From an uncultured Selenomonadales bacterium (GTDB taxonomy: Bacteria; Bacillota; Negativicutes; Acidaminococcales; Acidaminococcaceae), in contig ONEW01000008.1 of the NCBI GenBank assembly GCA_900316935.1, forward strand, positions 1,216-65,215: a DNA stretch of 64,000 nucleotides, in the 5' to 3' direction. The position numbers and the translations under genes were made by a program. Below the pieces are notes generated by a model. The model worked only from the letters and a program-made list of their open reading frames with translations. It did no database searches and was not told the DNA's origin. This document shows, one piece after another, positions 3,849 through 37,542 of the stretch; the stretch's first letter is position 1; each line of letters opens with the position of its first letter.

Positions 3849-4769
3849 TCATTTTTTGTGGAACGGCAGTTTCGCTTCGAACCCGCTCCGTTTGTCCAGC
3901 AGGTTCTGGATGGTGTTGACCGGTACGCCGACACTCTCCAGGTAGCCCGCCGTGTAGCATTTGCGGATGGCGTGGACCATGTCGGCCGTTCCGTTCCCCA
4001 GGTCGTACACACCGATACGCCGCAGTTCGAAGGGCGTCTGCTCAAAAGTCTCCTTCGTGTTGGCGCCGATGCGGCCTGAAAAGCCGTATTCGTATTTGGG
4101 GTACTTTTTCACTTCGGCCAGCACGGCGTCGTTGTACGAGCCGTTCGGGAAGGCGATGCCGTGGATGAACCAGTGCAGACCGCCGTTGCGGCGGGAGAAC
4201 ACGTTCAGCGGCTCGTAGATTTCCCAGGGCAGGTAGTGCGGCGCAATCTTGGCCAGAGGATCGTGGCTCATGGTGTGGGACCCGATTTCCATGCCGGCTT
4301 CGTGCATCTCCTTCAGCATGGGCTTGTCCATGTATTCCTTGAAGCCGTCCTGCGTGAAGGATTTGCCGATATCCTTGCCGATGACGTAGAAATTGCCTTT
4401 GAACCCATATTTCTTGAGGATTGGAAAAGCCACGGTGTAATTGTTCTTGTAGCCGTCGTCAAAAGTGAGCATGATCAGGTTGCTGACATCCTCACCGGCC
4501 ATGAGGGCGGCACGGGCTTCCTGCACCGTGACGGCTTTGTAGCCATTGTCCTTCAGCCACTTCATCTGTTCCTCGAAGAGCTGCGGCGTGATGCACATTT
4601 CGGACGGCCAGCCGGGCGGGACTTCGCTGATGCTGTGGTACATGAGGGCAGGTACGGCATGGTGCCGGTAGACGGCCACGTTCTGTTTCACGATGACTGT
4701 GTAGTACACAGCGGTCGCGGCAAAGAGCACCAGAAGTACAGCGGCCAGCTTTTTCAAGAATTTAAGCAT
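3849..4769 (-). CDS. Membrane-anchored polysaccharide deacetylase (NodB/CE4 family)
   Basis: LMYHSI, LTFDDGY, IGSHTMSH and AFPNG motifs; N-terminal TM. The ATG overlaps the whiA stop. Confidence 0.88.
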   Translation of the reverse strand: MLKFLKKLAAVLLVLFAATAVYYTVIVKQNVAVYRHHAVPALMYHSISEVPPGWPSEMCITPQLFEEQMKWLKDNGYKAVTVQEARAALMAGEDVSNLIMLTFDDGYKNNYTVAFPILKKYGFKGNFYVIGKDIGKSFTQDGFKEYMDKPMLKEMHEAGMEIGSHTMSHDPLAKIAPHYLPWEIYEPLNVFSRRNGGLHWFIHGIAFPNGSYNDAVLAEVKKYPKYEYGFSGRIGANTKETFEQTPFELRRIGVYDLGNGTADMVHAIRKCYTAGYLESVGVPVNTIQNLLDKRSGFEAKLPFHKK

Positions 4770-5709
4770 ATTTGGTGATGTCCATTCCTTTACTTTCAGC
4801 AATCTGCTGGATTTTCTTCAACCGGTGGTTGAGGCCCGATTTGCCTATTTTTCCGTCCATATAGTCCGTCAGCTCGTTCAGCGAGGCATTGGGATGGGCC
4901 AGGCGCAAGTCCGCCGCTTCCTTCAGCAGGTCCGGCAGCAGGTCGTAATCCCCGTGCTCCTGCAGGTAGCGGATACAGGCTGTCTGCAGCACGGCGGCGC
5001 GGATGACCTTGTTCAGGTTCGCCGTTTCACAATTCACCTGGCGGTTGACGTTGTTGCGCATATCCTTTATAATACGCACATTTTCGAATTCCATCAAGGC
5101 CTGATGGGCCCCGATGACGGATAAAAAGTCGATGATGTGGTCCCCGTCTTTCAGGTAGACGATGAAATCGTTCTTGCGGTCCGTCATGCGGGCGTTCAGC
5201 TGGAACCCGTGCATGATTTTCAGGATAAGGCGGGCGAACTCCTGGTTTTCCGTCACGATTTCCAGGTGGTAGTCACTGGACGGGCGGCTGATGGATCCGC
5301 CGGCCATGAAGACACCTCGCAGGAAAGAGCGGCGGCAGCAGCTTTTGCGCAGCAGCACGTCCTTCGGCTCCCCTTCCGCCTCTTCCGACGGCAGGATGCG
5401 CAGTTCCTTCAATGCTTTGGCCACTTCCGGATCAGGCAGGACCTCCACCTGGTACCGGTTGTTCTTTTTTAAGCGCCGGGACCGCGTCACAACGATCTCC
5501 GTGCGCACCTTGTAGTTGCTTTTCAGCATCTGCAGGACGCGCCGTGCCAGGGCCGCATTCTCCGTCGAGAAATGGATGCCCATGTTCATGCCGCGCAGGA
5601 CGATGGCGCCGCTCATGCGCAGCACGCCGAGCAGCTCCGCCTTCTGACAGCAGGGCTTGAGGCCCTCCAGGCGGGCCAGTTCATTTTTTACATCGGATGA
5701 GAAAGACAT
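4762..5709 (-). CDS. whiA: DNA-binding protein WhiA
   Basis: MSFSSDVKNEL, FLRGVFMAGGS, NRQVNCETANLNK, KSGLNHRL; position after rapZ-yvcK. Confidence 0.95.
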   Translation of the reverse strand: MSFSSDVKNELARLEGLKPCCQKAELLGVLRMSGAIVLRGMNMGIHFSTENAALARRVLQMLKSNYKVRTEIVVTRSRRLKKNNRYQVEVLPDPEVAKALKELRILPSEEAEGEPKDVLLRKSCCRRSFLRGVFMAGGSISRPSSDYHLEIVTENQEFARLILKIMHGFQLNARMTDRKNDFIVYLKDGDHIIDFLSVIGAHQALMEFENVRIIKDMRNNVNRQVNCETANLNKVIRAAVLQTACIRYLQEHGDYDLLPDLLKEAADLRLAHPNASLNELTDYMDGKIGKSGLNHRLKKIQQIAESKGMDITKYA

Positions 5710-5760
5710 GCCTTCCCTCCTCCTTGCCAGTAAAAATCCTCCGGCGCCTGCCGGGGCAGG

Positions 5761-7128
5761 TCACGCCTTCTGGTTTTTCTTCATGCGCCGCATGCTGAGG
5801 CGCACGAACAGGTAATCGAAAAACACATAGCCGCGGCCAAAGAGGCGCAGACGGTAAATCAGGGAGATGATGACCATGGCCAGTTTCTGCGGATCGTGGC
5901 GGACCATGTCCTCCTTGCTGATAAGCCGCGTCGGAATCGGCTTGATACCCAGACTTTCAATCTTTTCGATATCGGGCGTCACATATGCCTGCCCCTTGGC
6001 GCGATACATCTTCTTCTGTTCTTCCGAAATCTCCTGGTCGTTGACGATGACATAGTCCAGGAACTGGCTGCCCACGTGGTCGATAAGGGCCTTGACGTGT
6101 TCGTAGGCGCCGTACCCGTCGGTCTCGCCAGGTTGCGTCATGACATTGCAGACGTAAATCTTGAAGGCCCTGCTTTCCTGCACGGCCTGGCGGATGCCCG
6201 GCACAAGCAGGTTCGGCAGGACGCTCGTGTAGAGGCTGCCGGGCCCGAAAATCAGGACATCAGCATCGCGGATGGCTTGCACGGCGCTTTTCGTCGCCGG
6301 CGCGTCGGGCGGCACCATATGCAGGCGGGCGATGTGTTTGCCGGCCTCGGAAATTTCCGATTCCCCCAGCACGGACGTGCCGTCGGTCATGTCGGCCTTG
6401 ATCTGGATGCTTTCCAGGGTCGAGGGAATCACGTGGCCGCGGATCCGCAGAATCTGGGAGGCCGCGTTCAGGCCTTCCTCCATCCCGCCTTCCGTGGCGG
6501 CGATGGCGGCCAGGAACAGGTTGCCCAGGTTGTGCCCCGCCAGGGCGGAGTCCCCCTGGAAGCGGTACTGCAGGACGCGTTCCATCAGGGGTTCGCGGTC
6601 GGCCATGGCGACCAGGCAGTTGCGCAGGTCTCCGGGCGGGATGATGCCCAGTTCCTGGCGCAGGCGGCCCGAAGAACCGCCGTCATCAGCCACGGTCACG
6701 ACGGCCGTGCAGTTGCCCGTGATGTATTTCATGCCGCGCAGCAGGGTGGACAGGCCCGTACCGCCGCCCACGACGGTGACGGCCGGCCCGTTGCTCAGCT
6801 TCCGCTGCGTGAAGATGGTCTCCATGAGGGACCCGTTGTTTTCGGGCATGACGGAATCAATGACGGAGTGCACGATGCGCCGCGTCGCGTAGAACATGAT
6901 GATGAGTCCCGCCGCGATTCCGACGATGCCGGCCAGGATCATGAGGCCGTTGTTGTAGCGGCCCGTGGTCATGTAGCTCATGCGGAAGAGCATTTCTTCC
7001 ACAAAGCCCATGGTCTGGTCGTTGAATAACAATGCCAGGGAGAAGGCGCAGCACAGCACGCCGCCGGAAAACAGCAGCAACCAGCGCTTCAGGTTCATGC
7101 CCGGGCAAAGCCAGCTAATCCAATTCAT
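5761..7128 (-). CDS. yvcK: YvcK/GlmR-family gluconeogenesis/uridine diphosphate-GlcNAc-binding protein with N-terminal TM extension
   Basis: VGGGTGLS, VTVADDGGSSGRLR, PPGDLRNC, GPGSLYTS. Confidence 0.93.
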   Translation of the reverse strand: MNWISWLCPGMNLKRWLLLFSGGVLCCAFSLALLFNDQTMGFVEEMLFRMSYMTTGRYNNGLMILAGIVGIAAGLIIMFYATRRIVHSVIDSVMPENNGSLMETIFTQRKLSNGPAVTVVGGGTGLSTLLRGMKYITGNCTAVVTVADDGGSSGRLRQELGIIPPGDLRNCLVAMADREPLMERVLQYRFQGDSALAGHNLGNLFLAAIAATEGGMEEGLNAASQILRIRGHVIPSTLESIQIKADMTDGTSVLGESEISEAGKHIARLHMVPPDAPATKSAVQAIRDADVLIFGPGSLYTSVLPNLLVPGIRQAVQESRAFKIYVCNVMTQPGETDGYGAYEHVKALIDHVGSQFLDYVIVNDQEISEEQKKMYRAKGQAYVTPDIEKIESLGIKPIPTRLISKEDMVRHDPQKLAMVIISLIYRLRLFGRGYVFFDYLFVRLSMRRMKKNQKA

Positions 7129-7146
7129 ACAAACCTCGTAAAGCCG

Positions 7147-8010
7147 TCAGGCCTTCTTATTCAGATCGCGGTGGTTCAGTTCCACATGGTATGATTTCAA
7201 CCGCAGGTAATCGTAAATCTTGTTGGCGATGAAGACGGACCGGTGCTGCCCGCCCGTGCAGCCGACGCTGATCACGAGCTGGCTCTTCCCTTCCGACTCG
7301 TATTGCGGAATGAGGAAGTCGAGCATCTCGCACTCCCGCTTCAGAAACTCGAACGTCTGGGGGAACTTGCTCAAATAGTCCGCCACAAGCGTGTCATTGC
7401 CCGTCAGGTGCTTCATGGAATCCTCGTAGAAGGGATTCGGCAGGAACCGCACGTCGAGCACGATGTCACTGTCCAGGGGCAGGCCGTGCTTGAAGCCGAA
7501 GGACTGGACCACGATGAGCAGATGCCCTGCCGCCTCTTCACCGCCATACATGCTGCGGATCTTCGTCTTCAGGTCCGCCACGGACATGGTCGATGTATCA
7601 AAGACCTGGTTCGCCAACTCCCGCACGGGCATCAGCGATCTGCGCTCCAGCGCCACACTGGCGGCCAGGCTGTTGTGGCCCTGTTCCAGCGGATGGCGCC
7701 GCCGGGTCTCCTTATAGCGGCGGATCAGCGTCGCGTCGCCGGCATCCATATAGACGACCTCGTACGGAAAGCCGTTGGCCTTCATCTCTTCCAGTATATC
7801 CACGAACTGGTCCGCTGAACCGCCGCGCACGTCGACCACCATGGCCGCGTCGCGGTTCGGCGTCTGCCGGCACAGTTCGGCAAATTTCGGCAGCAGCACG
7901 ATGGGCAGGTTGTCCACGCAGAAATAATTCAGATCCTCGAGCGTGCGCAGTACCTGGGTCTTGCCGGCACCGCTCATGCCTGTCACAATTAAAAACCGTC
8001 CTTGTTCCAT
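7147..8010 (-). CDS. rapZ: RNase adapter RapZ/YvcJ P-loop protein
   Basis: GMSGAGKT, SFGFKHGLP, DVRFLPNP, GCTGGQHRSV. GGAGGAG RBS supports ATG 8010. Confidence 0.95.
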   Translation of the reverse strand: MEQGRFLIVTGMSGAGKTQVLRTLEDLNYFCVDNLPIVLLPKFAELCRQTPNRDAAMVVDVRGGSADQFVDILEEMKANGFPYEVVYMDAGDATLIRRYKETRRRHPLEQGHNSLAASVALERRSLMPVRELANQVFDTSTMSVADLKTKIRSMYGGEEAAGHLLIVVQSFGFKHGLPLDSDIVLDVRFLPNPFYEDSMKHLTGNDTLVADYLSKFPQTFEFLKRECEMLDFLIPQYESEGKSQLVISVGCTGGQHRSVFIANKIYDYLRLKSYHVELNHRDLNKKA

Positions 8011-8149
8011 AGGCTCCTCCCCGGAATCTCCCCCGCCGGCAGTGCATCTCCCGCTCTGCAAGATGTACAGTCCGTCAGTCGCAAAGTTTTCTATAATTTA
8101 AAATTATACCATACCTGTCCGAAGAATGAAATACCCGGCTCCGTTGCAA

Positions 8150-8167
8150 TGTGACAGGATTGTGACA
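8150..8167 (-). promoter_or_regulatory. Direct repeat TGTCACA-N4-TGTCACA (OmpR/PhoB-type box) upstream of the rapZ promoter
   Basis: Exact 7-mer repeat with 11-bp period. TATAAT -10 (minus strand) at 8103-8108. Confidence 0.45.
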
Positions 8168-8268
8168 TCTGCCACGGGTTCCCTGCTTCCTGTTCCGGAC
8201 AATGCATCATCCCCCCACAGGGAAGATGCCCGGATTGTTCCGCAGAAGGCATAAGGAACCCTCTTTTG

Positions 8269-8319
8269 GTTAACCTTTTTATATTTTTGGTTGACGTAAC
8301 TGTTTGCACCCTCTATAAT
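8269..8319 (+). promoter_or_regulatory. BirA operator overlapping the sigma-A promoter of bioX
   Basis: GTTAAC-N15-GTTGAC at 8269-8295. TTGACG(8291)-N17-TATAAT(8314). Confidence 0.8.
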
Positions 8320-8376
8320 GGAATCATCCGGAGTCCCCAGCAACCCGATACCCCCTACAGAAAGGAGCCCTGTCCC

Positions 8377-26816: not shown

Positions 26817-28076
26817 TCACCTCCAGATGTCCACAGCCTTGCCGTTCCCCAACGGAGCCAGCTTCAGACAGGAGGCCAGGGTCTGGCCGATGTCGGAGAA
26901 CGTATGGAACGGTTCCAGCCGCTGGGCTTTAACGGTCCCGCCATAAAACAGGACGGGAACCTTTTCCCGCGTGTGGTCCGTACCTTTCCAGGTCGGATCG
27001 CAGCCATGGTCCGCCGTCACCAGCAGCACATCGTCGGGCCGCAGCAGGGCCAGCAGCTCCGGCAGGCGGCGGTCATACAGTTCCAGTCCCTCGCCGTAGC
27101 CCAAAGCGTCGCGGCGATGGCCGAAACTGGAATCGAAATCAACGAAATTGCTGAAGACCAGCGTGTTGTCCGGCGCGTCCTTGACGGCCTGCACCGTGGC
27201 GTCGAAGATAGGGTCCAGCCCCGCTGCCGGGTAATGTTTCGAAATGCCCCGGTGGGCGAAGATATCGGCGATTTTGCCGATGGCATAGACCTGCCCGCCG
27301 GCCTTCACCATGTTGTCCAGCAGGGTCGGTTCGTGGGCCGGTACGGCAAAATCGTGCCGGTGGGCCGCCACACGCTCGAAATTCCCGGCTTCCGTTCCCA
27401 CGAAAGGACGGGCGATGACACGGGCGATCCTGTAGGGCTGCACCAGCTTGTAGGCCAGACGGCACAGGTCGTAGAGCCGCTCCAGGCCGAAGGTCTCTTC
27501 GTGGCAGGCAATCTGCAGGACGCTGTCTGCCGACGTGTAGACGATGGGTTTGCCTGTCTTCCTGTGTTCTTCACCCAGTTCCTGGATGATTACGGTGCCG
27601 CTGGCATGTTTTTCGCCGAGCACGCCGGGCAGGTTCCCTTCCTTCACGAGGGCATCCATGAGTTCCGGAGGGAAGCATTTCGGCTTGTCCGGAAAATAGC
27701 CCCAGTTGAACCGCACAGGCACGCCGGCGATTTCCCAGTGGCCGCTCAAGGTGTCCTTGCCCTTGCTGATTTCCTCGGCACACGTGTAAGCCGCCTTGAC
27801 ACGGCCGCCGTCCAGCGGGTCCGCCTGGACAGGTTCCCCGGACAAGGGATGCACCAGGATTTTCCCCGTACTCAGTTCATGGGCTTTTTCCAAGCCCAAC
27901 GCAGCCAGATGAGGCAGGAACAGGTACTGCGGCGTACCGTCCGCCTGTTTGCGGTTGGCCGCCATCCAATCCGCGATATGCCCCAGCGTGTCGGCGCCTT
28001 TGTCGCCGAAAGCCTCTGCATCGTGGGCATAGCCGATGCCGAAGGAATCCAATATCGTGATGATGACTCTCGCCAT
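26817..28076 (-). CDS. deoB: Phosphopentomutase
   Basis: [61 protein letters not shown] 28088 is an alternative start. Confidence 0.95.
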
Positions 28077-28168
28077 GTGTTCTGTCACACCTTTCCCCAG
28101 TCTTTATCTTACTGTTACACTTTCATTGTACCGCAATCCGCCCCGCGGTTTGTGTCCTAAGTCTGAAT

Positions 28169-28978
28169 TCAGCGCGCCGCGCCTTGCCAGGCCAGAAGCA
28201 GTTCCAGGGCCCGCCTGGCCACGACCTGGAAGCGCTTTTCCGCCGCACGGTAGACATCGGGCGGTGCCACGGACTCGCTGTCCGTACGCTTGGCCACGAC
28301 ACCGCAGATAGCCCCGGCGCGCAGGCCGAGCACACTGGTCAGGGTGAAGAGCGTAGCCGCCTCCATTTCGTAGTTGCTGCACCCCAGAGTCTGCCATTCC
28401 TTCAGGGAACCCTGCAACCGGCGCACCACGTAGCCGCCAAAGCTGTCGTACCGTTCCTGGCCGGGCCAGAAGCTGTCCGTCGTCACGGTCACGCCCAGCT
28501 TGAAGGGTACCTGCAGCTCTTCCGCCGCCTGGCGCAGGGCCAGAGTCACATCCAGGTCCGGCACAGCCGGATATGCAATGGGGGCATAGGCGCGGGAAGC
28601 GCCGTCCATCCGCACGGCGGCCTTGCTGATGACCACGTCGCCCAGGTTCAGGTCCTCCCGCAGGGATCCCGTCGTCCCCACGCGGATGAAGGTCCTGACC
28701 CCCAGCCGCGCCAATTCCTCCACTGCGAAGGTGATGCACGGTCCGCCCATGCCCGTCGACATGACCAGCACCGGCTGCCCGTTGAGGCGGGCCAGCCACG
28801 ACGTAAACTCCCGGTGCGACGTCACAAACTCTGCTGCCGGATCCAAGGCTTTCGCCAGACCTTCCACGCGGCCCGGATCGCCAGGCACGAGGGCATATTC
28901 CGCCCCTTCGAGCATCTCTTTCGTCAACCCCGTGTGGTACATGACCTCGCCGGGTTTTGCGTAATGTTTTTGCATCAT
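28169..28978 (-). CDS. udp: Uridine phosphorylase
   Basis: VPGDPGRV, HREF, STGMGGP, RVGTTGS, DSFWPGQERY, NYEMEAATL. Confidence 0.92.
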   Translation of the reverse strand: MMQKHYAKPGEVMYHTGLTKEMLEGAEYALVPGDPGRVEGLAKALDPAAEFVTSHREFTSWLARLNGQPVLVMSTGMGGPCITFAVEELARLGVRTFIRVGTTGSLREDLNLGDVVISKAAVRMDGASRAYAPIAYPAVPDLDVTLALRQAAEELQVPFKLGVTVTTDSFWPGQERYDSFGGYVVRRLQGSLKEWQTLGCSNYEMEAATLFTLTSVLGLRAGAICGVVAKRTDSESVAPPDVYRAAEKRFQVVARRALELLLAWQGAAR

Positions 28979-30915: not shown

Positions 30916-30946
30916 AAAAAAAGCCCGGTCCGCGCACGGGCCGGGC
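30916..30946 (-). terminator. Intrinsic terminator (minus strand)
   Basis: GCCCGGCCC-GTGCGC-GGACCGGGC-T7. Confidence 0.75.
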
Positions 30947-31000
30947 AATCACGACATTCCAACATGGAGGTTGTTGATTAACATCTGCACCAAGAAATCA
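30916..31000 (-). ncRNA. Candidate small RNA with an anti-Shine-Dalgarno (ACCUCCA) hairpin loop
   Basis: Stem GAUGUU-AA-UCAACA/UGUUGG-AAUGUC (30985-30953); its G-U pairs work only on the minus strand. Followed by a terminator. 5' end uncertain. Confidence 0.4.
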
Positions 31001-31170: not shown

Positions 31171-32130
31171 TCAGCACCGCCTGAAGAGGATGGTTGAAAA
31201 AGGGCGGACTACGTCCGTATCCTTCGTTATATTCACCGTATCGCCCTGTATGACGACACGGTTGGCAAAAACAGCGCCGTTCACGGACGCGCCGTTCCGG
31301 ATATACAGTGTCCCCTCACAAAAGATGAGGGCTTTCGCAAAATGGACTTCCTCCCCGATGACGAGATCCTCACCGGCGATAATGACGACCCGGTCGGGGA
31401 ACCCGCTATGGTCCTGGAAGATGCCCGTCCTTTGAAAGACCAGTATGCCTGTACCGGTCACGGTTCCGTTCCCTTTCACATTGTAACGGTCCCGGATAAA
31501 GTACATCCTGCGCATCGGGATTCCATCTTTTGCCATGTCACTACCAGACGTAAAGCCGCCCTCGACCCAGTTCCGGAATGAATCGACCTTGAATTCCGGA
31601 AAGGACGCGCCACATGAGCTTGCATACAGCACTCCATTCTTCGCGAGCGTCTCCGCGCCAGATACACTTCCCCGCACCGTCAGCGGTACGAGGGAAGCCT
31701 GCCGGCAGATAAGTTCCGGTAAACGCATCAACAGGTGATGTACCGTATACGCGTTCCCGTCGGCATCTGCAGCAGATGCATGCAAAAGACGAAGCCCCAG
31801 GGGCGTATACCGTTGTACCGCGGTATATGCTCTGACTTTCCTGCCACCCGGGTACAGTTCCCCCAAGGGCAGTCCCAAGTCCGTCAATGGTTCCGTCTTT
31901 TCCCGCTCCAGTTCCCGCAGCATCAGGGAATTGGCAATCACTTCCAATTGTTCCCGGTAGAGGTCCTCCTGCCAGGCCCGCCCTTCGTCCCGCAGCATGA
32001 GTGCCAGGGAGAGTGGTACCGCGCTGAGAATCAGGCACGCCACAAGCAGGGAGATCCCTATAAAACCGTCACAACCGGCCGGCCCGCTTCGAAAGAAACG
32101 GGAACCGGACTTTTCAGGAAACCTGTACAA
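31171..32130 (-). CDS. Pseudopilin-like protein (ComGG/PilX position) with a C-terminal beta-rich domain
   Basis: G|FIGIS prepilin-like site plus hydrophobic helix; last gene of the pilin operon. Confidence 0.6.
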   Translation of the reverse strand: MYRFPEKSGSRFFRSGPAGCDGFIGISLLVACLILSAVPLSLALMLRDEGRAWQEDLYREQLEVIANSLMLRELEREKTEPLTDLGLPLGELYPGGRKVRAYTAVQRYTPLGLRLLHASAADADGNAYTVHHLLMRLPELICRQASLVPLTVRGSVSGAETLAKNGVLYASSCGASFPEFKVDSFRNWVEGGFTSGSDMAKDGIPMRRMYFIRDRYNVKGNGTVTGTGILVFQRTGIFQDHSGFPDRVVIIAGEDLVIGEEVHFAKALIFCEGTLYIRNGASVNGAVFANRVVIQGDTVNITKDTDVVRPFSTILFRRC

Positions 32131-32632
32131 CCGTACCGTTCAGGGAAGCGAGGACTTCGCGGAAGGTACGCCGGCGTCCGCAGACCCGGTCTTCCAGAGT
32201 CAGTGCCACTTCCACTTCCTTGTCTGACAATTTGCGCAGTTTCCAATTTTTGACCAGGACATCCGTATCCGAATTCGGGACAATTCCGATATCTTTCCCG
32301 AACTTCCGGATGCCGCGATACAGGGTGCCCCGCCGTACATAGAAACTGACCATGGTGTGTTCGTCCGACCGGTGGCATTGCACCGTCATCGAAGCGTCAG
32401 CCCGTTCCGGATCACCATACAGGAAGACCTGCACGCTCTGGTCGGATAGTTCGCTTTTTACCAGACTGAGAGAGTATCGTGCAGCCCTGTACAGCCGCAG
32501 ATCCGACAAAACGAGGGACCCGCTCCGCACCAGGGACTGGAAATGGTCCAGGACCACGCAGGGAAGCAGTAAAAGGAGAAACAGCACGAGCTGTACCTGA
32601 AGCAGGATGAAACCGGTTCTTTCTTTCCTCAT
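32114..32632 (-). CDS. Minor pseudopilin (ComGF/PilW-like)
   Basis: RTG|FILLQ plus hydrophobic helix; overlaps its neighbours. Confidence 0.6.
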   Translation of the reverse strand: MRKERTGFILLQVQLVLFLLLLLPCVVLDHFQSLVRSGSLVLSDLRLYRAARYSLSLVKSELSDQSVQVFLYGDPERADASMTVQCHRSDEHTMVSFYVRRGTLYRGIRKFGKDIGIVPNSDTDVLVKNWKLRKLSDKEVEVALTLEDRVCGRRRTFREVLASLNGTVVQVS

Positions 32633-33042
32633 TCTTCCTCCCTTTCTGCAGCAGGCCGTCCCCGCCCCGCATGGAATTCCATACGGTTGGCGACTACCTT
32701 GCCCCTTGCGTCCCGGACCAGGCGGACCTGCAGGAGATGCGGGCCCGCTTCCCGTTTTTCCCCGGTGACCGTGTACCCGGAGGGGAGCAGTGACCCCTTC
32801 CCTTCCTCCGGAATCTGCGGACTTTCACCGGCCGTGCCGGATAAGCTTGGCAGACTGCCGTCCGGATAGGATAAAACGGAAAAACACTGTGCCAGTTCAT
32901 TGTGCCATATCATGGCCTGCGTCGTGCGGTACAGACAGGTCAGTACGGAAGCGGTCAGCAGCATCAGTGCCGCCGTGACCGGCAGCAGTGTCAGCAACAC
33001 AAACCCGCTATTCCGTTTTTCCCTTTGTCCATGCATATGCAT
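32629..33042 (-). CDS. Minor pseudopilin (ComGE-like)
   Basis: RNSG|FVLLT plus hydrophobic helix. Confidence 0.55.
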   Translation of the reverse strand: MHMHGQREKRNSGFVLLTLLPVTAALMLLTASVLTCLYRTTQAMIWHNELAQCFSVLSYPDGSLPSLSGTAGESPQIPEEGKGSLLPSGYTVTGEKREAGPHLLQVRLVRDARGKVVANRMEFHAGRGRPAAEREEE

Positions 33043-33056
33043 ACCGCAGTGACTCC

Positions 33057-33545
33057 TTACCAGTCCGTTACCTTGATCCGTCCTGTAACGGGTTGGATTT
33101 CCACTTGTTTCTTCAGTCCCGGGAATCCCTTCATGGCCAGCGTAAAGATACCGCTTTTGCGAGGGGATCCCTGGGTCGTAAACTGGATTTCCCGGAACGG
33201 CACGGACACAAAATACACCGCCGTGCCGTAATCAGCCAGGAAGTCCCGCCGCCGCACCTCGTTCGTACCACGTAAAATTTGATAGCCGTTGCTTTGGTCT
33301 TTGTACAGGTAGATGCCGGCGGCTTCCCTGGCCGGACGGGACCGGAAAATACTGTCCGAGCGGATCTGCTGCAGGTCGAGCACGAATCCGTTCGTCACCA
33401 TGTCGAGCTGCATCCGCGCCACGTGGCGCAACAGACCGCCATACCCCAGGGTCAGCAACCCTGCGAAAAGGGTAGCGACGGTCACGCCTGACAGCGTTTC
33501 CAAAAGGAGATAGCCGCCCCTCCCGTCTTGTTTTTCTGACATCAT
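33057..33545 (-). CDS. Minor pseudopilin (ComGD/FimT-like)
   Basis: RGG|YLLLE class III signal; C-terminal VEIQPVTGRI resembles FimT/GspH ends. Confidence 0.68.
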   Translation of the reverse strand: MMSEKQDGRGGYLLLETLSGVTVATLFAGLLTLGYGGLLRHVARMQLDMVTNGFVLDLQQIRSDSIFRSRPAREAAGIYLYKDQSNGYQILRGTNEVRRRDFLADYGTAVYFVSVPFREIQFTTQGSPRKSGIFTLAMKGFPGLKKQVEIQPVTGRIKVTDW

Positions 33546-33586: not shown

Positions 33587-34018
33587 TCAGGGATTGCCCG
33601 GCTCGTTCGTCCCATTCTTCGTTCCAGCAGGAATGGCGTTGGAATTGATTTCCTCACCAGCCGAATTCTTGCCGGTGATAGAATACTTTTCGCCGTCTTT
33701 ATTCAGTACCAGCGGTTCATTTTTAGCATCCTTCAGGTCGCTGTTCTTCAGATAGTCCGGGAACAGGGCCTGCAAGTCAGGTGGCAAAGTGCCTTTATCC
33801 AGCTTGTACAGGGCGACGGCCTGGTCGGCGGTCATCAGGTCATTCTTCAATTTGGCATCCCGGGCTTTGGCCCCGGCGCCGTCTATGGACGGTATCAGCA
33901 TGGTGGCCAGAACGCCCAGGATGACCGTTACGGCAATGACTTCAATCAGGGTGAAGCCGCCGTTCCTCTTTTTCGTCCTTGAAGAACGAAACAATCTGTT
34001 TTTACTGTTCTGCAACAA
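33587..34018 (-). CDS. Major type IV pilin/pseudopilin (ComGC/GspG-like)
   Basis: NGG|FTLIEVIAVTVILGVLA, canonical N-methylation motif. Confidence 0.88.
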   Translation of the reverse strand: MLQNSKNRLFRSSRTKKRNGGFTLIEVIAVTVILGVLATMLIPSIDGAGAKARDAKLKNDLMTADQAVALYKLDKGTLPPDLQALFPDYLKNSDLKDAKNEPLVLNKDGEKYSITGKNSAGEEINSNAIPAGTKNGTNEPGNP

Positions 34019-34033
34019 AAGATCCCTCCGGTC

Positions 34034-35236
34034 TCATTGATATGCCGGCATCTGCGTCATGACCGAAAACAACGGCGATATCATGACGGCGATGGCCGCG
34101 AAGACCACCGTTGCGATGATCATAACCAGGAGCGGCTCCAAAATGGTCTTGAGTTCCCGGATCCTCTGCATGAGTTCCTGCTCGCGGATCTCAGCCGCTT
34201 CCGACAGCATTTGGGACAAGTTGCCTGAGTTCTCGCCAATCCGGAGGAACTCCAGTGTCACATGGCTGAACAGATTGCCTGCCTGGGTTGCTGACGCGGC
34301 GATTCCGAGGCCGCGGAGGATGCCATCGGCAAACCGGTCCGCCTGCAGCCGCATCTCCCCGTCTTCCACCGTCCTCACCGCGAGGCGTATGGCTTCAGGG
34401 AGCGCGGTGCCGCTCCGGAGGAGCAGGGCCAGCATCTTTACGAACCGCACCTCCAGATAGGGGCGGTGCAGCCCGCGGATACCCGGCAATCTGCAAACCA
34501 GGGATACGAGTTCCTTCCGTTTTTGGTATAGGGCTTTTCCGGAAACGATCAGGACGGCCGCAAGAGCCAGAAAGTGCCGCCCTACCAATCGCTTCAGGAA
34601 AAGCAGATGCCGCAAAAGCTGTGTTTCCGGAACACCCAGGGATGCGTACAGGGTCGTGAACATCGGGAGCAGTTCCACGCTGAAAAAAATCACTGTCGCG
34701 CAGGAGACAACTATCAGAAAAGCAGGATACGCCAGGATACTGCGTACATATTTGCACAATTTGTCTTGCCGCCTGTAATAATCGGACAATGCCTTCAGCA
34801 CTGCATTCAATTCGCCTCCCAGCTCACCAGCTTCGACAACGGCGATGCTTTGGGGGGGAAAGACGCGCGTCTGTTTCTGCATGGCGCCGGAAAGCGGAAG
34901 GCCCTTTTTCAGACCCGCACTCAGACGGCGGGAAACATCACAGAGCTTTACGTTCGGTCCGGAACTCATCACATCCAATGCCTGCGCAATGGAAATTCCT
35001 GCTTCCAGCAGCGTGTAGAGCTGCTGAAAGAATTTGGCCCTTTCTTTGTGGTTGATCGTCTTGCCGGCAAAAAAGGCGGAATCCCTCCAGGAGGACCGCT
35101 CCACCTTTTCAATTCCGATGACATAGCCATAGTTCGCACGGACGAAGTCAGCAACTTCCCGTTCCGAGTCCGCAAATATTTCTCCGGAACAGGTTTTGCC
35201 GGCGGTGCTGCGGGCCCGCCATCGGAACTGCCGCAA
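34034..35236 (-). CDS. Type II secretion/type IV pilus platform protein (ComGB/PilC/GspF family)
   Basis: FFQQLYTLLEAGI, VEAGELGGEL, LAYPAFL, IGENSGNL, LEPLL. AAGGAGGTG RBS, TTG start. Confidence 0.92.
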   Translation of the reverse strand: MRQFRWRARSTAGKTCSGEIFADSEREVADFVRANYGYVIGIEKVERSSWRDSAFFAGKTINHKERAKFFQQLYTLLEAGISIAQALDVMSSGPNVKLCDVSRRLSAGLKKGLPLSGAMQKQTRVFPPQSIAVVEAGELGGELNAVLKALSDYYRRQDKLCKYVRSILAYPAFLIVVSCATVIFFSVELLPMFTTLYASLGVPETQLLRHLLFLKRLVGRHFLALAAVLIVSGKALYQKRKELVSLVCRLPGIRGLHRPYLEVRFVKMLALLLRSGTALPEAIRLAVRTVEDGEMRLQADRFADGILRGLGIAASATQAGNLFSHVTLEFLRIGENSGNLSQMLSEAAEIREQELMQRIRELKTILEPLLVMIIATVVFAAIAVMISPLFSVMTQMPAYQ

Positions 35237-35302
35237 TGTGTCTCACCTCCTTTTGCCTTTCCAAGTATCACGATACCAGAGAAGGCCGGGAAAAGATAGA
35301 GT

Positions 35303-35317
35303 AATTTTCGGAAAATT
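35303..35317. promoter_or_regulatory. CodY box
   Basis: AATTTTCGGAAAATT versus consensus AATTTTCWGAAAATT (one mismatch); about 65-80 bp upstream of the pilus operon start. Confidence 0.65.
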
Positions 35318-35325
35318 GCAAAAAG

Positions 35326-35418
35326 TTATCCACAGATTTGCCATTTTTTCCTTTTTTTTCGCAAAACGCAGGTACGACCCCCTTTTTTGGCCCTACTTAT
35401 CCACAACCATGTGGATAA
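35326..35418. repeat. Cluster of three perfect DnaA boxes
   Basis: TTATCCACA at 35326-35334 and 35397-35405; TGTGGATAA at 35410-35418. Confidence 0.75.
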
Positions 35419-35618
35419 ACAGGACCACCCCCTCCGTACTTCCAGCCCGTCTGCACGGCGCCCTCTCTATCGGCAGCGGCTTTGTGGGCTCCGGGTGAAA
35501 TTTACAAGGGGAAGGCTGCCACAATTCCTTCATCATGTTCCATGAGCGGTTCCGTCCGGACTTCCTGCAGCAGGGCAAGTTCCGCCGCTGTAATCTTGCG
35601 CTCATCCATAGCCATCAT
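35393..35618 (-). pseudogene. Truncated/frameshifted gene remnant after the SDR
   Basis: GAGGAGG RBS overlaps the SDR stop. 38-aa ORF 35618-35502 (MMAMDERKITAAELALLQ...); another frame continues to ...EGVVLFIH and ends in the DnaA boxes. Confidence 0.4.
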
Positions 35619-35623
35619 CCTCC

Positions 35624-36418
35624 TCACATCTTGGAGCAAAAGACACGGCCACAGGTATATCCCCCATCGACGAACAGGTTCTGCCCGACAATAAACCGCG
35701 CTTTATCGCTTGCCAAAAACAATACGGCATCCGCAATTTCGGAAGGTCTTCCTGTACGGGCCGCCGGTATCATGGAAATCTTTTCTTTGTGTTCCGCTTT
35801 GGCAACCGGTGTATTCAAAGACTGCAGCAGGGCCTCTGTTTCAATCAGCCCCGGCCCTACCGCATTGACCCGTATGCCTTTGCGAATCCATTCCAAAGCA
35901 AGCCCTTTAGTCAACATCACCACTGCCGCCTTGGAAGCCGCGTATGTCACAGCTCCCGGCCTGGCATTGGCTGCCGCACCGGATGAAATATTGACAATGC
36001 TGCCTTGCTTTCCAAAAGCAACCCAATACCGGGCCACTGCTTGGGCCATAAAGAAATATCCTTTCACGTTCAGGTCAAATATGGCATCCCATTCACTTTC
36101 TTCCAGATCCAACATAAACCTGGACGGATAGATACCGGCATTGTTCACCAGTACATCAAGCGTTCCCATCGCGGCAGCCGCTTGTTTTACAATGGTAGCA
36201 GCGGCGACCGGTGCTTGCCGCAGGTCAGCTGTCACGCCGTACACTTTCGAAGGAAACTTCCGTTTCCAGTCAGTCATCGTCTGTTGCAGCAAGTCCGGAT
36301 TGAAATCTACCAGAAATACAGCAGCGCCATTTTGCAAAAACTGTTCCGCAATGGCTTTACCGATACCTGCAGCCGCACCTGTAACCAGTACCCCTTTTCC
36401 AGCAAAGGAAATCTCCAT
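35624..36418 (-). CDS. SDR family NAD(P)-dependent oxidoreductase
   Basis: VTGAAAGIG, VNNAGI, YAASK, NAVGPG, VDGG. Lower GC than its flanks. Confidence 0.92.
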   Translation of the reverse strand: MEISFAGKGVLVTGAAAGIGKAIAEQFLQNGAAVFLVDFNPDLLQQTMTDWKRKFPSKVYGVTADLRQAPVAAATIVKQAAAAMGTLDVLVNNAGIYPSRFMLDLEESEWDAIFDLNVKGYFFMAQAVARYWVAFGKQGSIVNISSGAAANARPGAVTYAASKAAVVMLTKGLALEWIRKGIRVNAVGPGLIETEALLQSLNTPVAKAEHKEKISMIPAARTGRPSEIADAVLFLASDKARFIVGQNLFVDGGYTCGRVFCSKM

Positions 36419-36651
36419 CTCCACCGCCTCCTCAATTACAAAGCACACGCTTCACCCGCAATTTAAAATCCCGGGAACCAACAGTAATGGTTGCGCATCT
36501 GATGCCCAAGCTTAAACATTATAATATTATAACTTTAACTTTAATTTTAATGTACTATTGTCCTCGAAAATGTCAATAAAAAATAAAGTTACTCTGTCTT
36601 TTCACAGACGGAATAACTTTATTTGTTTCGGTTTTTACAACTTATATTATT

Positions 36652-37353
36652 TTATCTTGTATACTGTACACGATATTTCCAGTGTTGCGTTTCTGTATAA
36701 TATGTCATGTATTCATACATCTTTCCCAGCGCATCGTATGCGCTCCGTCTAATATGAAGAAGCGGCGCTCCGACAGGCAGGTCCAGCTTGGCTGCCACAA
36801 TCTTGCCGGCTTTGACAGCCCCGATCTCTTCCCGGACGGCATAAAGGTAAAATCCCTGCCGGGCCAGAAACATGGGCATGTCTTCTATGTCGCCGGCTTC
36901 TTTCACAGCTTCCACGGACAAATCCCGCACATAATGTACCAAGTATTGAAACGGATGGTTATTCATGATTCGGACCCGTTCTACAAGCACCACTTTTTCA
37001 TCCGGTGCCGTTTCCAACAGGTTTGCCACCTTCGAGGGCGGCACGATTTCACGAATTCCGATCACTTTACAGACCACCTTGTCCGACTTCTTCATCAGCT
37101 CCATGCGAAACCCGCCCAGCACAGCCGACTGCCAGCTGTTACGGTTTGCCACGAAGGTGCCCTTGCCGGCTTTGCGGATAATGAGTCCGTCATTTTCAAG
37201 CCGCCCCAAGGCCTGGCGGACCGGGGCGCGGCTGACGCCATATTCTTTCTGCAGTTGCAGTTCCGTCGGCAGCAGGCCGTCTTCCTTGTATATGCCCGTT
37301 ACAATCTTTGCTTTTAAATCCGTATAGATTCTGGCATTCAGCGAAACATCCAT
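36652..37353 (-). CDS. GntR family regulator (HutC/UTRA type)
   Basis: LPTELQL...YGVSRAPVRQAL...GKGTFV wHTH; UTRA-like C-terminus. Confidence 0.9.
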   Translation of the reverse strand: MDVSLNARIYTDLKAKIVTGIYKEDGLLPTELQLQKEYGVSRAPVRQALGRLENDGLIIRKAGKGTFVANRNSWQSAVLGGFRMELMKKSDKVVCKVIGIREIVPPSKVANLLETAPDEKVVLVERVRIMNNHPFQYLVHYVRDLSVEAVKEAGDIEDMPMFLARQGFYLYAVREEIGAVKAGKIVAAKLDLPVGAPLLHIRRSAYDALGKMYEYMTYYTETQHWKYRVQYTR

Positions 37354-37542
37354 CGTTCTAATCTGACCCTTCTTATAATCTTCTTGTATTTGATTATAAC
37401 AGATTTTACGGTTTAACATAACTGTTTTCGTGAATCCGTATCCTTTTCGCTATTTTTCCTTGTTATGGATGAAAGACTGGTGCGTGCGCATAAAAAACCT
37501 GCCATCATACGATGGCAGGTCCCTTGTCTCGTTATCGGGGAT

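Follow-up and report, generated by a model that had tools for sequence, protein, structure and literature searches.

The window (the whole 64-kb stretch of DNA that we analysed) carries on its minus strand a six-gene operon that we assign to a type IV filament, and the 267-bp spacer upstream of this operon, with a G+C content of 48%, contains three perfect DnaA boxes (Table 1). The operon opens with a platform protein gene whose TTG start codon is preceded by AAAGGAGGTG, continues with the gene for a major (pseudo)pilin of 143 residues, and closes with four small genes for which neither Pfam nor NCBIfam gave a family match. Genes elsewhere in the window include uvrC, uvrA, uvrB, whiA, rapZ, fumarase and malic enzyme.

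Table 1. Features of the filament locus and its upstream spacer (positions in the window; negative offsets are counted from the TTG start codon)
Feature	Position	Strand	Details
Operon 3' end, GC-rich hairpin and T run (intrinsic terminator)	30917..30971	-	Aligns to L001:8251-8306
Four more operon genes (162, 137, 172 and 319 aa)	31171..33545	-	First three with G↓(Y/F)xLL prepilin-like N-termini
Major (pseudo)pilin	33587..34018	-	Prepilin motif GG↓FTLIEV; Pfam N_methyl; GspG best NCBIfam and PDB match
Type IV filament platform protein (T2SSF; PilC/GspF/ComGB family), 400 aa, operon gene 1	34034..35236	-	Pfam T2SSF 9.4e-47; PDB PilC 8.9e-30
Candidate main promoter P2, extended -10 TGGTATCGT	35270..35278	-	Predicted start ~35263, 27 nt before TTG
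Palindrome AATTTTCCGAAAATT, CodY-box-like	35303..35317		8 bp downstream of proximal box (coding strand)
Candidate minor promoter P1, -10-like TGCAAT directly after proximal box	35315..35320	-	Predicted start ~35306
Proximal DnaA box	35326..35334	+	TTATCCACA on plus strand, TGTGGATAA on coding (minus) strand; -98..-90
Weak box-like TGCGAAAAA	35355..35363	-	2 mismatches; in A-tract-rich stretch between distal and proximal boxes
Distal DnaA box, orientation as proximal	35397..35405	+	TTATCCACA; -169..-161; 71 bp start-to-start from proximal box
Distal DnaA box, opposite orientation	35410..35418	-	-182..-174; inverted pair with the 35397 box, 4-bp spacer
GntR/UTRA regulator, SDR dehydrogenase and 37-aa ORF; lineage-specific upstream block outside the module	35504..37419	-	

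The combination of a T2SSF platform protein with prepilin-type subunits places the operon among type IV filament loci. The order of its genes (platform protein, major pilin, four small pilin-like genes) and its prepilin motifs are shared with comG of Bacilli and with gspF-K of type II secretion systems; unlike these, the operon has no adjacent ATPase gene (comGA or gspE), and all equivalog scores fall under their cut-offs. The sequence-only reading had described a competence-type pilin operon. The pilin operon stands, but the competence label is only partly supported: no comGA-like ATPase gene lies upstream of the operon in any lineage, the platform protein scores 204.9 bits with the GspF model of NCBIfam and 128.8 bits with ComGB (cut-off 240), both below cut-off, ComGC reaches 25.6 against a cut-off of 75, and the nearest relatives of solved structure are PilC for the platform protein and GspG for the major pilin. 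Because no ATPase gene is adjacent, ComGB and ComGC remain below cut-off and GspF, GspG and PilC score higher, the operon is best classified from its protein families as a generic type IV filament (Com/T2SS-like pseudopilus) locus. The sizes of the five genes that follow the platform gene (143, 162, 137, 172 and 319 aa) appear closer to those of GspG-K than to those of ComGC-GG. Where control of comG is known, it is exerted by ComK or by ComX/SigH, not by DnaA.

Both flanks of the operon have features of their own. On its 3' side (window 26817-28978) lie genes for a PNP_UDP_1 purine/uridine nucleoside phosphorylase and a phosphopentomutase-like metalloenzyme; the same two genes are found 3' of the operon in every clade for which the downstream flank was fetched (L002, L005 and L007/L008, of which the last two belong to relatives at 48% identity that lack boxes), either directly after it or behind cfa and CGGC genes, and the filament may be functionally connected to nucleoside salvage. 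On the 5' side, the 37-aa ORF of the upstream block follows right after the SDR stop codon with a strong GGAGG ribosome-binding site of its own, and no obvious terminator separates it from the boxes. The 36-38 kb bin, which holds most of the GntR/SDR block, has a G+C content of 0.497 compared with about 0.59 for the window.

Each of the three boxes matches the consensus 9-mer (TTATCCACA/TTATNCACA) perfectly, whereas the orthologous sites in relatives show zero to two mismatches. As the sequence-only reading had reported, they fall within 93 bp and two of them form an inverted pair 4 bp apart. They are the only perfect copies of TTATCCACA in the window, where ten further copies with one mismatch are scattered. 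At 59% G+C, 0.24 (mononucleotide model) or 0.23 (dinucleotide model) perfect boxes are expected per 64 kb, so that the earlier estimate of 0.5 copies was too high. The cluster lies far beyond chance: given the composition of the window, about 2e-8 clusters of three boxes within 93 bp are expected. Across approximately 105 kb of DNA from the clade (the window together with L001, L002, L005 and L010), all perfect boxes fall in this one spacer. The three-box cluster is not a product of chance. With the weak sites included, three perfect boxes and one or two weak ones lie within about 95 bp, and the weak box TGCGAAAAA recurs at -127/-126 in the window, L002 and L005. The 62 bp between the distal pair and the proximal box have a G+C content of 44% and contain runs of A6, A8 and A6. 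The inverted pair of the window is itself embedded in 18-nt arms (35388-35427, 83% complementary) that give a strong hairpin fold; the flanks that lengthen these arms are peculiar to the lineage of the window.

A cluster of perfect DnaA boxes adjoining a relatively A+T-rich stretch (44% G+C compared with 59% for the window) calls to mind an origin of replication, be it that of the chromosome (whole, or as one part of a split origin) or a relic left by a plasmid or phage. We consider this reading extremely improbable. The DnaA signature RDH[TS]T[VI] does not occur in any of the six frames of the window, and neither dnaA nor dnaN is present among the ORFs scanned against Pfam, as had been noted from the sequence. 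Across the window, GC skew stays below zero and declines steadily without a switch, and the genes on both sides of the boxes are all on the minus strand, in keeping with the earlier observation that gene-strand bias does not change here. Because dnaA and dnaN are missing and GC skew is negative throughout, the site is not an origin of the Firmicutes type. Moreover, there are only three strong boxes, and the spacer contains no run of DnaA-trios (a single TAG follows the box), no AT-rich 13- or 27-mers or other AT-rich unwinding element, its A-tracts apart, and no iterons. The site sits between a terminator and an active promoter, in chromosomal synteny that is conserved in four lineages and includes no rep or mobility genes; in one relative the locus occupies 158-171 kb of a 2.16-Mb contig. 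The view of the sequence-only reading that the boxes form a non-origin site was thus borne out, and the reading as an origin or plasmid relic is largely refuted.

We were interested in how far the boxes extend among relatives of the filament operon. Scanning with the platform protein returned one locus from genome contigs and 66 loci from metagenomes, two of which belonged to the box-bearing clade; further cluster members added only two near-identical spacer variants. By their cluster names the box-bearing lineages fall within Succiniclasticum/Acidaminococcaceae, and they comprise four distinct spacer lineages, described here by offsets from the start codon on the coding strand and by platform protein identity relative to the window: the window type (the window and L083), the L001 type (L001, L009 and L075-77; about 93% identity) and two types that we group as lineage B, namely the L002 type (L002-4 and L082; 66%) and the L005 type (L005/6, L010 and L078-81; 67%). 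The window and L001 types are referred to as lineage A. In the window, the box of opposite orientation begins at -182 and the two of the same orientation at -169 and -98. The L001 type has its boxes at -184, -170 and -99, with a 5-bp spacer in the inverted pair. In lineage B, the opposite box has degenerated to TGATACATA at -181 (two mismatches to TTATNCACA, followed by a 5-bp spacer), while TGTGGATAT at -167 is accompanied by an extra perfect TGTGGATAA at -159, these two being in tandem with a 1-bp overlap, and the proximal box lies at -97 or -96. Also present in the L005 spacer is an inverted repeat with perfect 10-bp arms (TTTTATGTAT-TG-ATACATAAAA, L005:5811-5832), located after the upstream terminator and before the tandem boxes; its right arm holds the degenerate opposite-orientation box.

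Despite these rearrangements the layout is preserved. The proximal box is perfect in the window, L001 and L005 types and has one mismatch in L002 (AGTGGATAA), with eight of its nine columns invariant across the four lineages, and in all of them a distance of 70-71 bp separates the -169/-167 box from the proximal one. For the two same-orientation boxes together, 16 of 18 columns are invariant compared with 43% of spacer columns outside named features (Fisher p = 2e-4), a figure to be read in the light of four lineages from one genus-level clade, two of which are about 90% identical across the spacer and which therefore amount to few independent comparisons. The gene upstream of the boxes differs in three ways: the window, and likewise the independent metagenome contig L083, has a GntR-SDR-small ORF block; the L001 type has a gene encoding a beta-helix protein, together with a terminator; and lineage B, which lacks the GntR/SDR block, has a gene for a hypothetical protein of 233-240 aa and a terminator. 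The homology shared by the window and L001 starts exactly at the distal box, where synteny breaks. Since the upstream gene differs while the distances between boxes and operon are constant, the boxes travel with the filament operon. The layout was kept while one box decayed and another arose, as would be expected under selection on DnaA 9-mers, and the switch of one distal box from an inverted to a tandem arrangement argues that the 9-mer, rather than a dimeric palindrome, is the selected unit. Decay accompanied by gain is what such selection predicts from the alignment, unlike selection on a symmetric operator or an RNA hairpin. The boxes are thus retained at orthologous loci in four lineages down to a platform identity of 66%. 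In contrast, neither boxes nor palindrome occur at twenty-odd loci with a platform protein of 40-49% identity; the G+C content of these relatives is lower, and the two with a fetched flank (L007/L008) share the operon and the genes that follow it. Judged by this distribution, the box module is clade-specific.

The same comparison bears on whether the motif might be recognized by some protein besides DnaA (such as the neighbouring GntR/HutC regulator, at a palindromic operator), might act as an RNA hairpin or terminator, or might be a chance or hitch-hiking sequence. A GntR gene does lie 1.2 kb upstream, and the long arms around the inverted pair of the window would form a strong RNA hairpin. 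The other three lineages, however, keep the boxes without the GntR/SDR block, and the pair of lineage B is tandem and not inverted. On the transcribed strand the hairpin is followed by a run of A, not of U; the other lineages have canonical terminators of their own just upstream; the RNA contigs described below do not include the box region; and Rfam gave no match. The expected counts exclude chance, and the 9-mer is the universal DnaA consensus. On these grounds we rejected the GntR-operator, hairpin/terminator and chance readings, and regard this group of explanations, taken together, as very unlikely.

Aligning the four spacers also brought out putative promoter elements downstream of the boxes. 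A scan of the spacer with consensus promoters gave no match, and the elements were read from the alignment. All lineages retain an extended -10 element, TGnTATnGT, 58-59 bp downstream of where the proximal box starts. Because relatives with 46-49% identity have promoter-like hexamers in the same place, at equal distance from the ribosome-binding site, we take this element to be the ancestral core promoter, the putative P2. A second element with a -10-like TnnAAT (TGCAAT, TGTAAT, TTAAAT or TTCAAT) and nnGkCA 18 bp upstream has the proximal box inside its spacer and is possibly a minor promoter, P1. A further candidate in the window, TTGCAA-N17-TATCTT as a sigma-70 promoter, was dropped, as a 3-bp indel breaks its spacing in lineage B. 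The palindrome between the proximal box and P2 has the form AATTTTCnnAAAAyT, differs from AATTTTCNGAAAATT at one position in each of the four box-bearing lineages, with 12 of its 15 columns invariant, and is absent from the 40-49% clade. It would overlap the -10 and start of P1, or lie near -47 of P2, and it probably binds a second regulator; we found nothing relevant in the literature on CodY in Negativicutes or on Succiniclasticum pili.

We took advantage of seven true rumen metatranscriptome runs that contain the L001-type organism at no less than 99% identity, available as assembled contigs and not as reads. Window-strain RNA from mixed-culture runs (X7 and X25-27) and the runs labelled 'METATRANSCRIPTOMIC WGS RANDOM' (X32-35) were set aside: their multi-kilobase contigs span everything, probably contain DNA and are uninformative on transcript ends. 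No contig in the seven true RNA runs covers L001:3822-3929, the stretch of the three boxes, which is thus an untranscribed region after the terminator of the neighbouring gene and ahead of the operon mRNA. Contigs of the upstream gene end at L001:3754 or 3821, past the terminator of that gene, and contigs of the operon start at L001:3987, 3991, 4000, 4008 and 4029, where the start codon is at 4001. These starts lie 77-119 nt downstream of the proximal box, and those that support P2 fall 1-14 nt before the start codon; two contig ends carry assembled adapter sequence and differ by 9 nt. Single contigs run across the whole operon in X30 (4000-8356, depth 134) and X31 (3991-8270, depth 39), while the depth of the upstream gene is 3.6-4.6 in X30 and at most 2.5 in X31; neither the depth nor the ends of contigs are strong measures, and we use both only as supporting evidence. 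Read in this supporting role, the contigs show that the six genes form a single transcription unit with good expression in the rumen and a start downstream of every box. P2 most likely provides the main start, about 27 nt before the start codon.

One contig end lies further upstream. In run X37, a snap-back contig reads antisense from L001:3972 to 3930 and is joined there to sense sequence from 4012, as would result from cDNA reaching an RNA 5' end near L001:3930. This end (3930, +/-4) lies 20 nt downstream of the proximal box and 7-9 nt after TGTAAT, and on the evidence of this single contig at least some RNA starts near P1.

The RNA contigs brought out three further features of the operon and its 3' flank. 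Those of X30 and X31 run on, unbroken, through the hairpin and T run at the operon's 3' end, which may represent its 3' UTR and terminator rather than a gene of its own. Just past the operon terminator, at L001:8327-8425, contig depth reaches about 480-890 in X30 and 110-180 in X31, with several short contigs branching at a common 30-mer, which points to a very highly expressed downstream unit, unlike the CGGC-domain gene region of the window. In the third pilin-like gene (L001:6414, window ~32790), both rumen RNA contigs miss 5 nt that the L001 DNA has, and gene calls in this region vary by strain (112 aa or 137 aa); the difference is either a frame-changing strain polymorphism or an error in MAG assembly.

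[quoted passage not shown] Three consensus boxes would rank among the strongest DnaA sites in a genome of 59% G+C. We know of no DARS-type element outside Proteobacteria. The core of DARS1 and DARS2 in E. coli consists of boxes I and II in opposite orientation, separated by a 5-bp gap, with box III after box II (PMC6868365), and the present locus recalls it with three boxes, two of which oppose each other across 4 bp in the window and 5 bp in the L001 type, the remaining one pointing the same way as the second; lineage B presents a degenerate opposite box, a 5-bp gap and then two same-direction boxes. DARS1 also lies in a promoter region, that of uvrB (PMC11317965). The likeness to the compact DARS core is nonetheless incomplete: box III should lie near box II in the same direction, whereas in lineage A 62 bp separate the third box from the pair and in lineage B the corresponding boxes overlap by 1 bp, with the opposite-orientation box degenerate. 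No IHF or Fis sites were identified.

The clusters near oriC of B. subtilis (Okumura et al. 2012, PMC3245932) and datA of E. coli share with this locus a non-origin, high-affinity cluster of boxes, and the B. subtilis clusters act on initiation independently of the expression of neighbouring genes (PMC3245932). Those clusters are defined by their effect on initiation and their proximity to oriC, whereas the boxes described here are gene-linked and fewer, three compared with the five of datA. In Bacillus, the position near oriC is kept while the neighbouring genes differ between species (PMC3245932); at the filament locus the boxes accompany the operon, with a fixed distance to its promoter and a variable flank on the other side. 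Because the boxes keep their distance to the operon and the transcript starts downstream of them, a role for DnaA as a transcription factor fits better than titration dependent on position alone. We therefore consider a site devoted to DnaA titration or recharging unlikely, although such a role and control of the promoter are not mutually exclusive.

DnaA is a known transcription factor, with targets that are mostly genes of replication, nucleotide supply, repair and the sporulation checkpoint. In B. subtilis, it activates sda and represses ywlC, yydA and dnaA through clusters of boxes upstream (PMC3245932, PMC4447404), and E. coli DnaA binds close pairs of boxes in promoters (PMC11317965). 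The DnaA-regulated promoters of B. subtilis likewise have several consensus or near-consensus boxes in intergenic DNA, away from oriC and upstream of a transcription unit, and at sda the boxes lie upstream of the core promoter, as they do at the filament operon. The sequence-only reading had placed the boxes upstream of a pilin operon; more precisely, they occupy its spacer, just upstream of the putative promoter elements, and are conserved with the operon and linked to its promoter region in four lineages. In contrast to sda, ywlC, yydA and dnaA, the target here is a type IV filament operon, there are three strong boxes only, the host is a diderm Negativicute and the regulation is predicted. 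None of the DnaA targets given in PMC3245932, PMC4447404 and PMC11317965 is a pilus or DNA-uptake operon, and a full-text literature search for DnaA boxes in connection with competence or pilus genes found no link. Non-origin DnaA boxes in a promoter region are thus of a known kind, and a filament operon as their target is unusual.

These comparisons lead us to propose, with about an even chance of being right, that the three boxes constitute a clade-specific, DnaA-responsive control module of the filament-operon promoter. DnaA would occupy the distal pair, inverted or tandem, together with the proximal box. With P2 as the main start, the centres of the three boxes would lie near -151, -138 and -67 relative to a promoter with an extended -10 but no recognizable -35 element, and DnaA may oligomerize over the 62-bp spacer, bent by its A-tracts, and over the weak box in its middle. 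Such occupancy would alter the recruitment of RNA polymerase. Within DnaA-dependent control we lean modestly towards activation, as at B. subtilis sda, in which case more free DnaA-ATP would give more pilus expression and DnaA would serve as activator or co-activator, possibly alongside the factor that binds the palindrome. We favour this role because consensus boxes are expected to be occupied during most of the cell cycle and yet the operon is strongly expressed, and because sda offers a precedent. The alternative is repression, which might act by occlusion of the minor upstream start P1, where the proximal box lies in the spacer between -35 and -10, or might come from a DnaA oligomer that spans the A-tract spacer. 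High expression in vivo while the consensus boxes are intact can be reconciled with activation and equally with the absence of any effect, and the fact that the box-less relatives at 40-49% identity run the same operon counts against control by DnaA.

A stronger form of this proposal is that DnaA directly switches a DNA-uptake or surface filament operon in rumen Succiniclasticum, such that free DnaA-ATP, as after a stalled fork or delayed initiation, sets the production of pili. We hold this only tentatively, judging it well short of probable. If it were true, it would provide a direct route to the induction of competence by replication stress, as opposed to the gene dosage or dedicated regulators employed by other bacteria. 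Should the boxes control the promoter as proposed, surface filaments, and possibly DNA uptake, would join the processes timed by the replication initiator, in an abundant, little-studied rumen genus whose cultured type species makes the idea testable.
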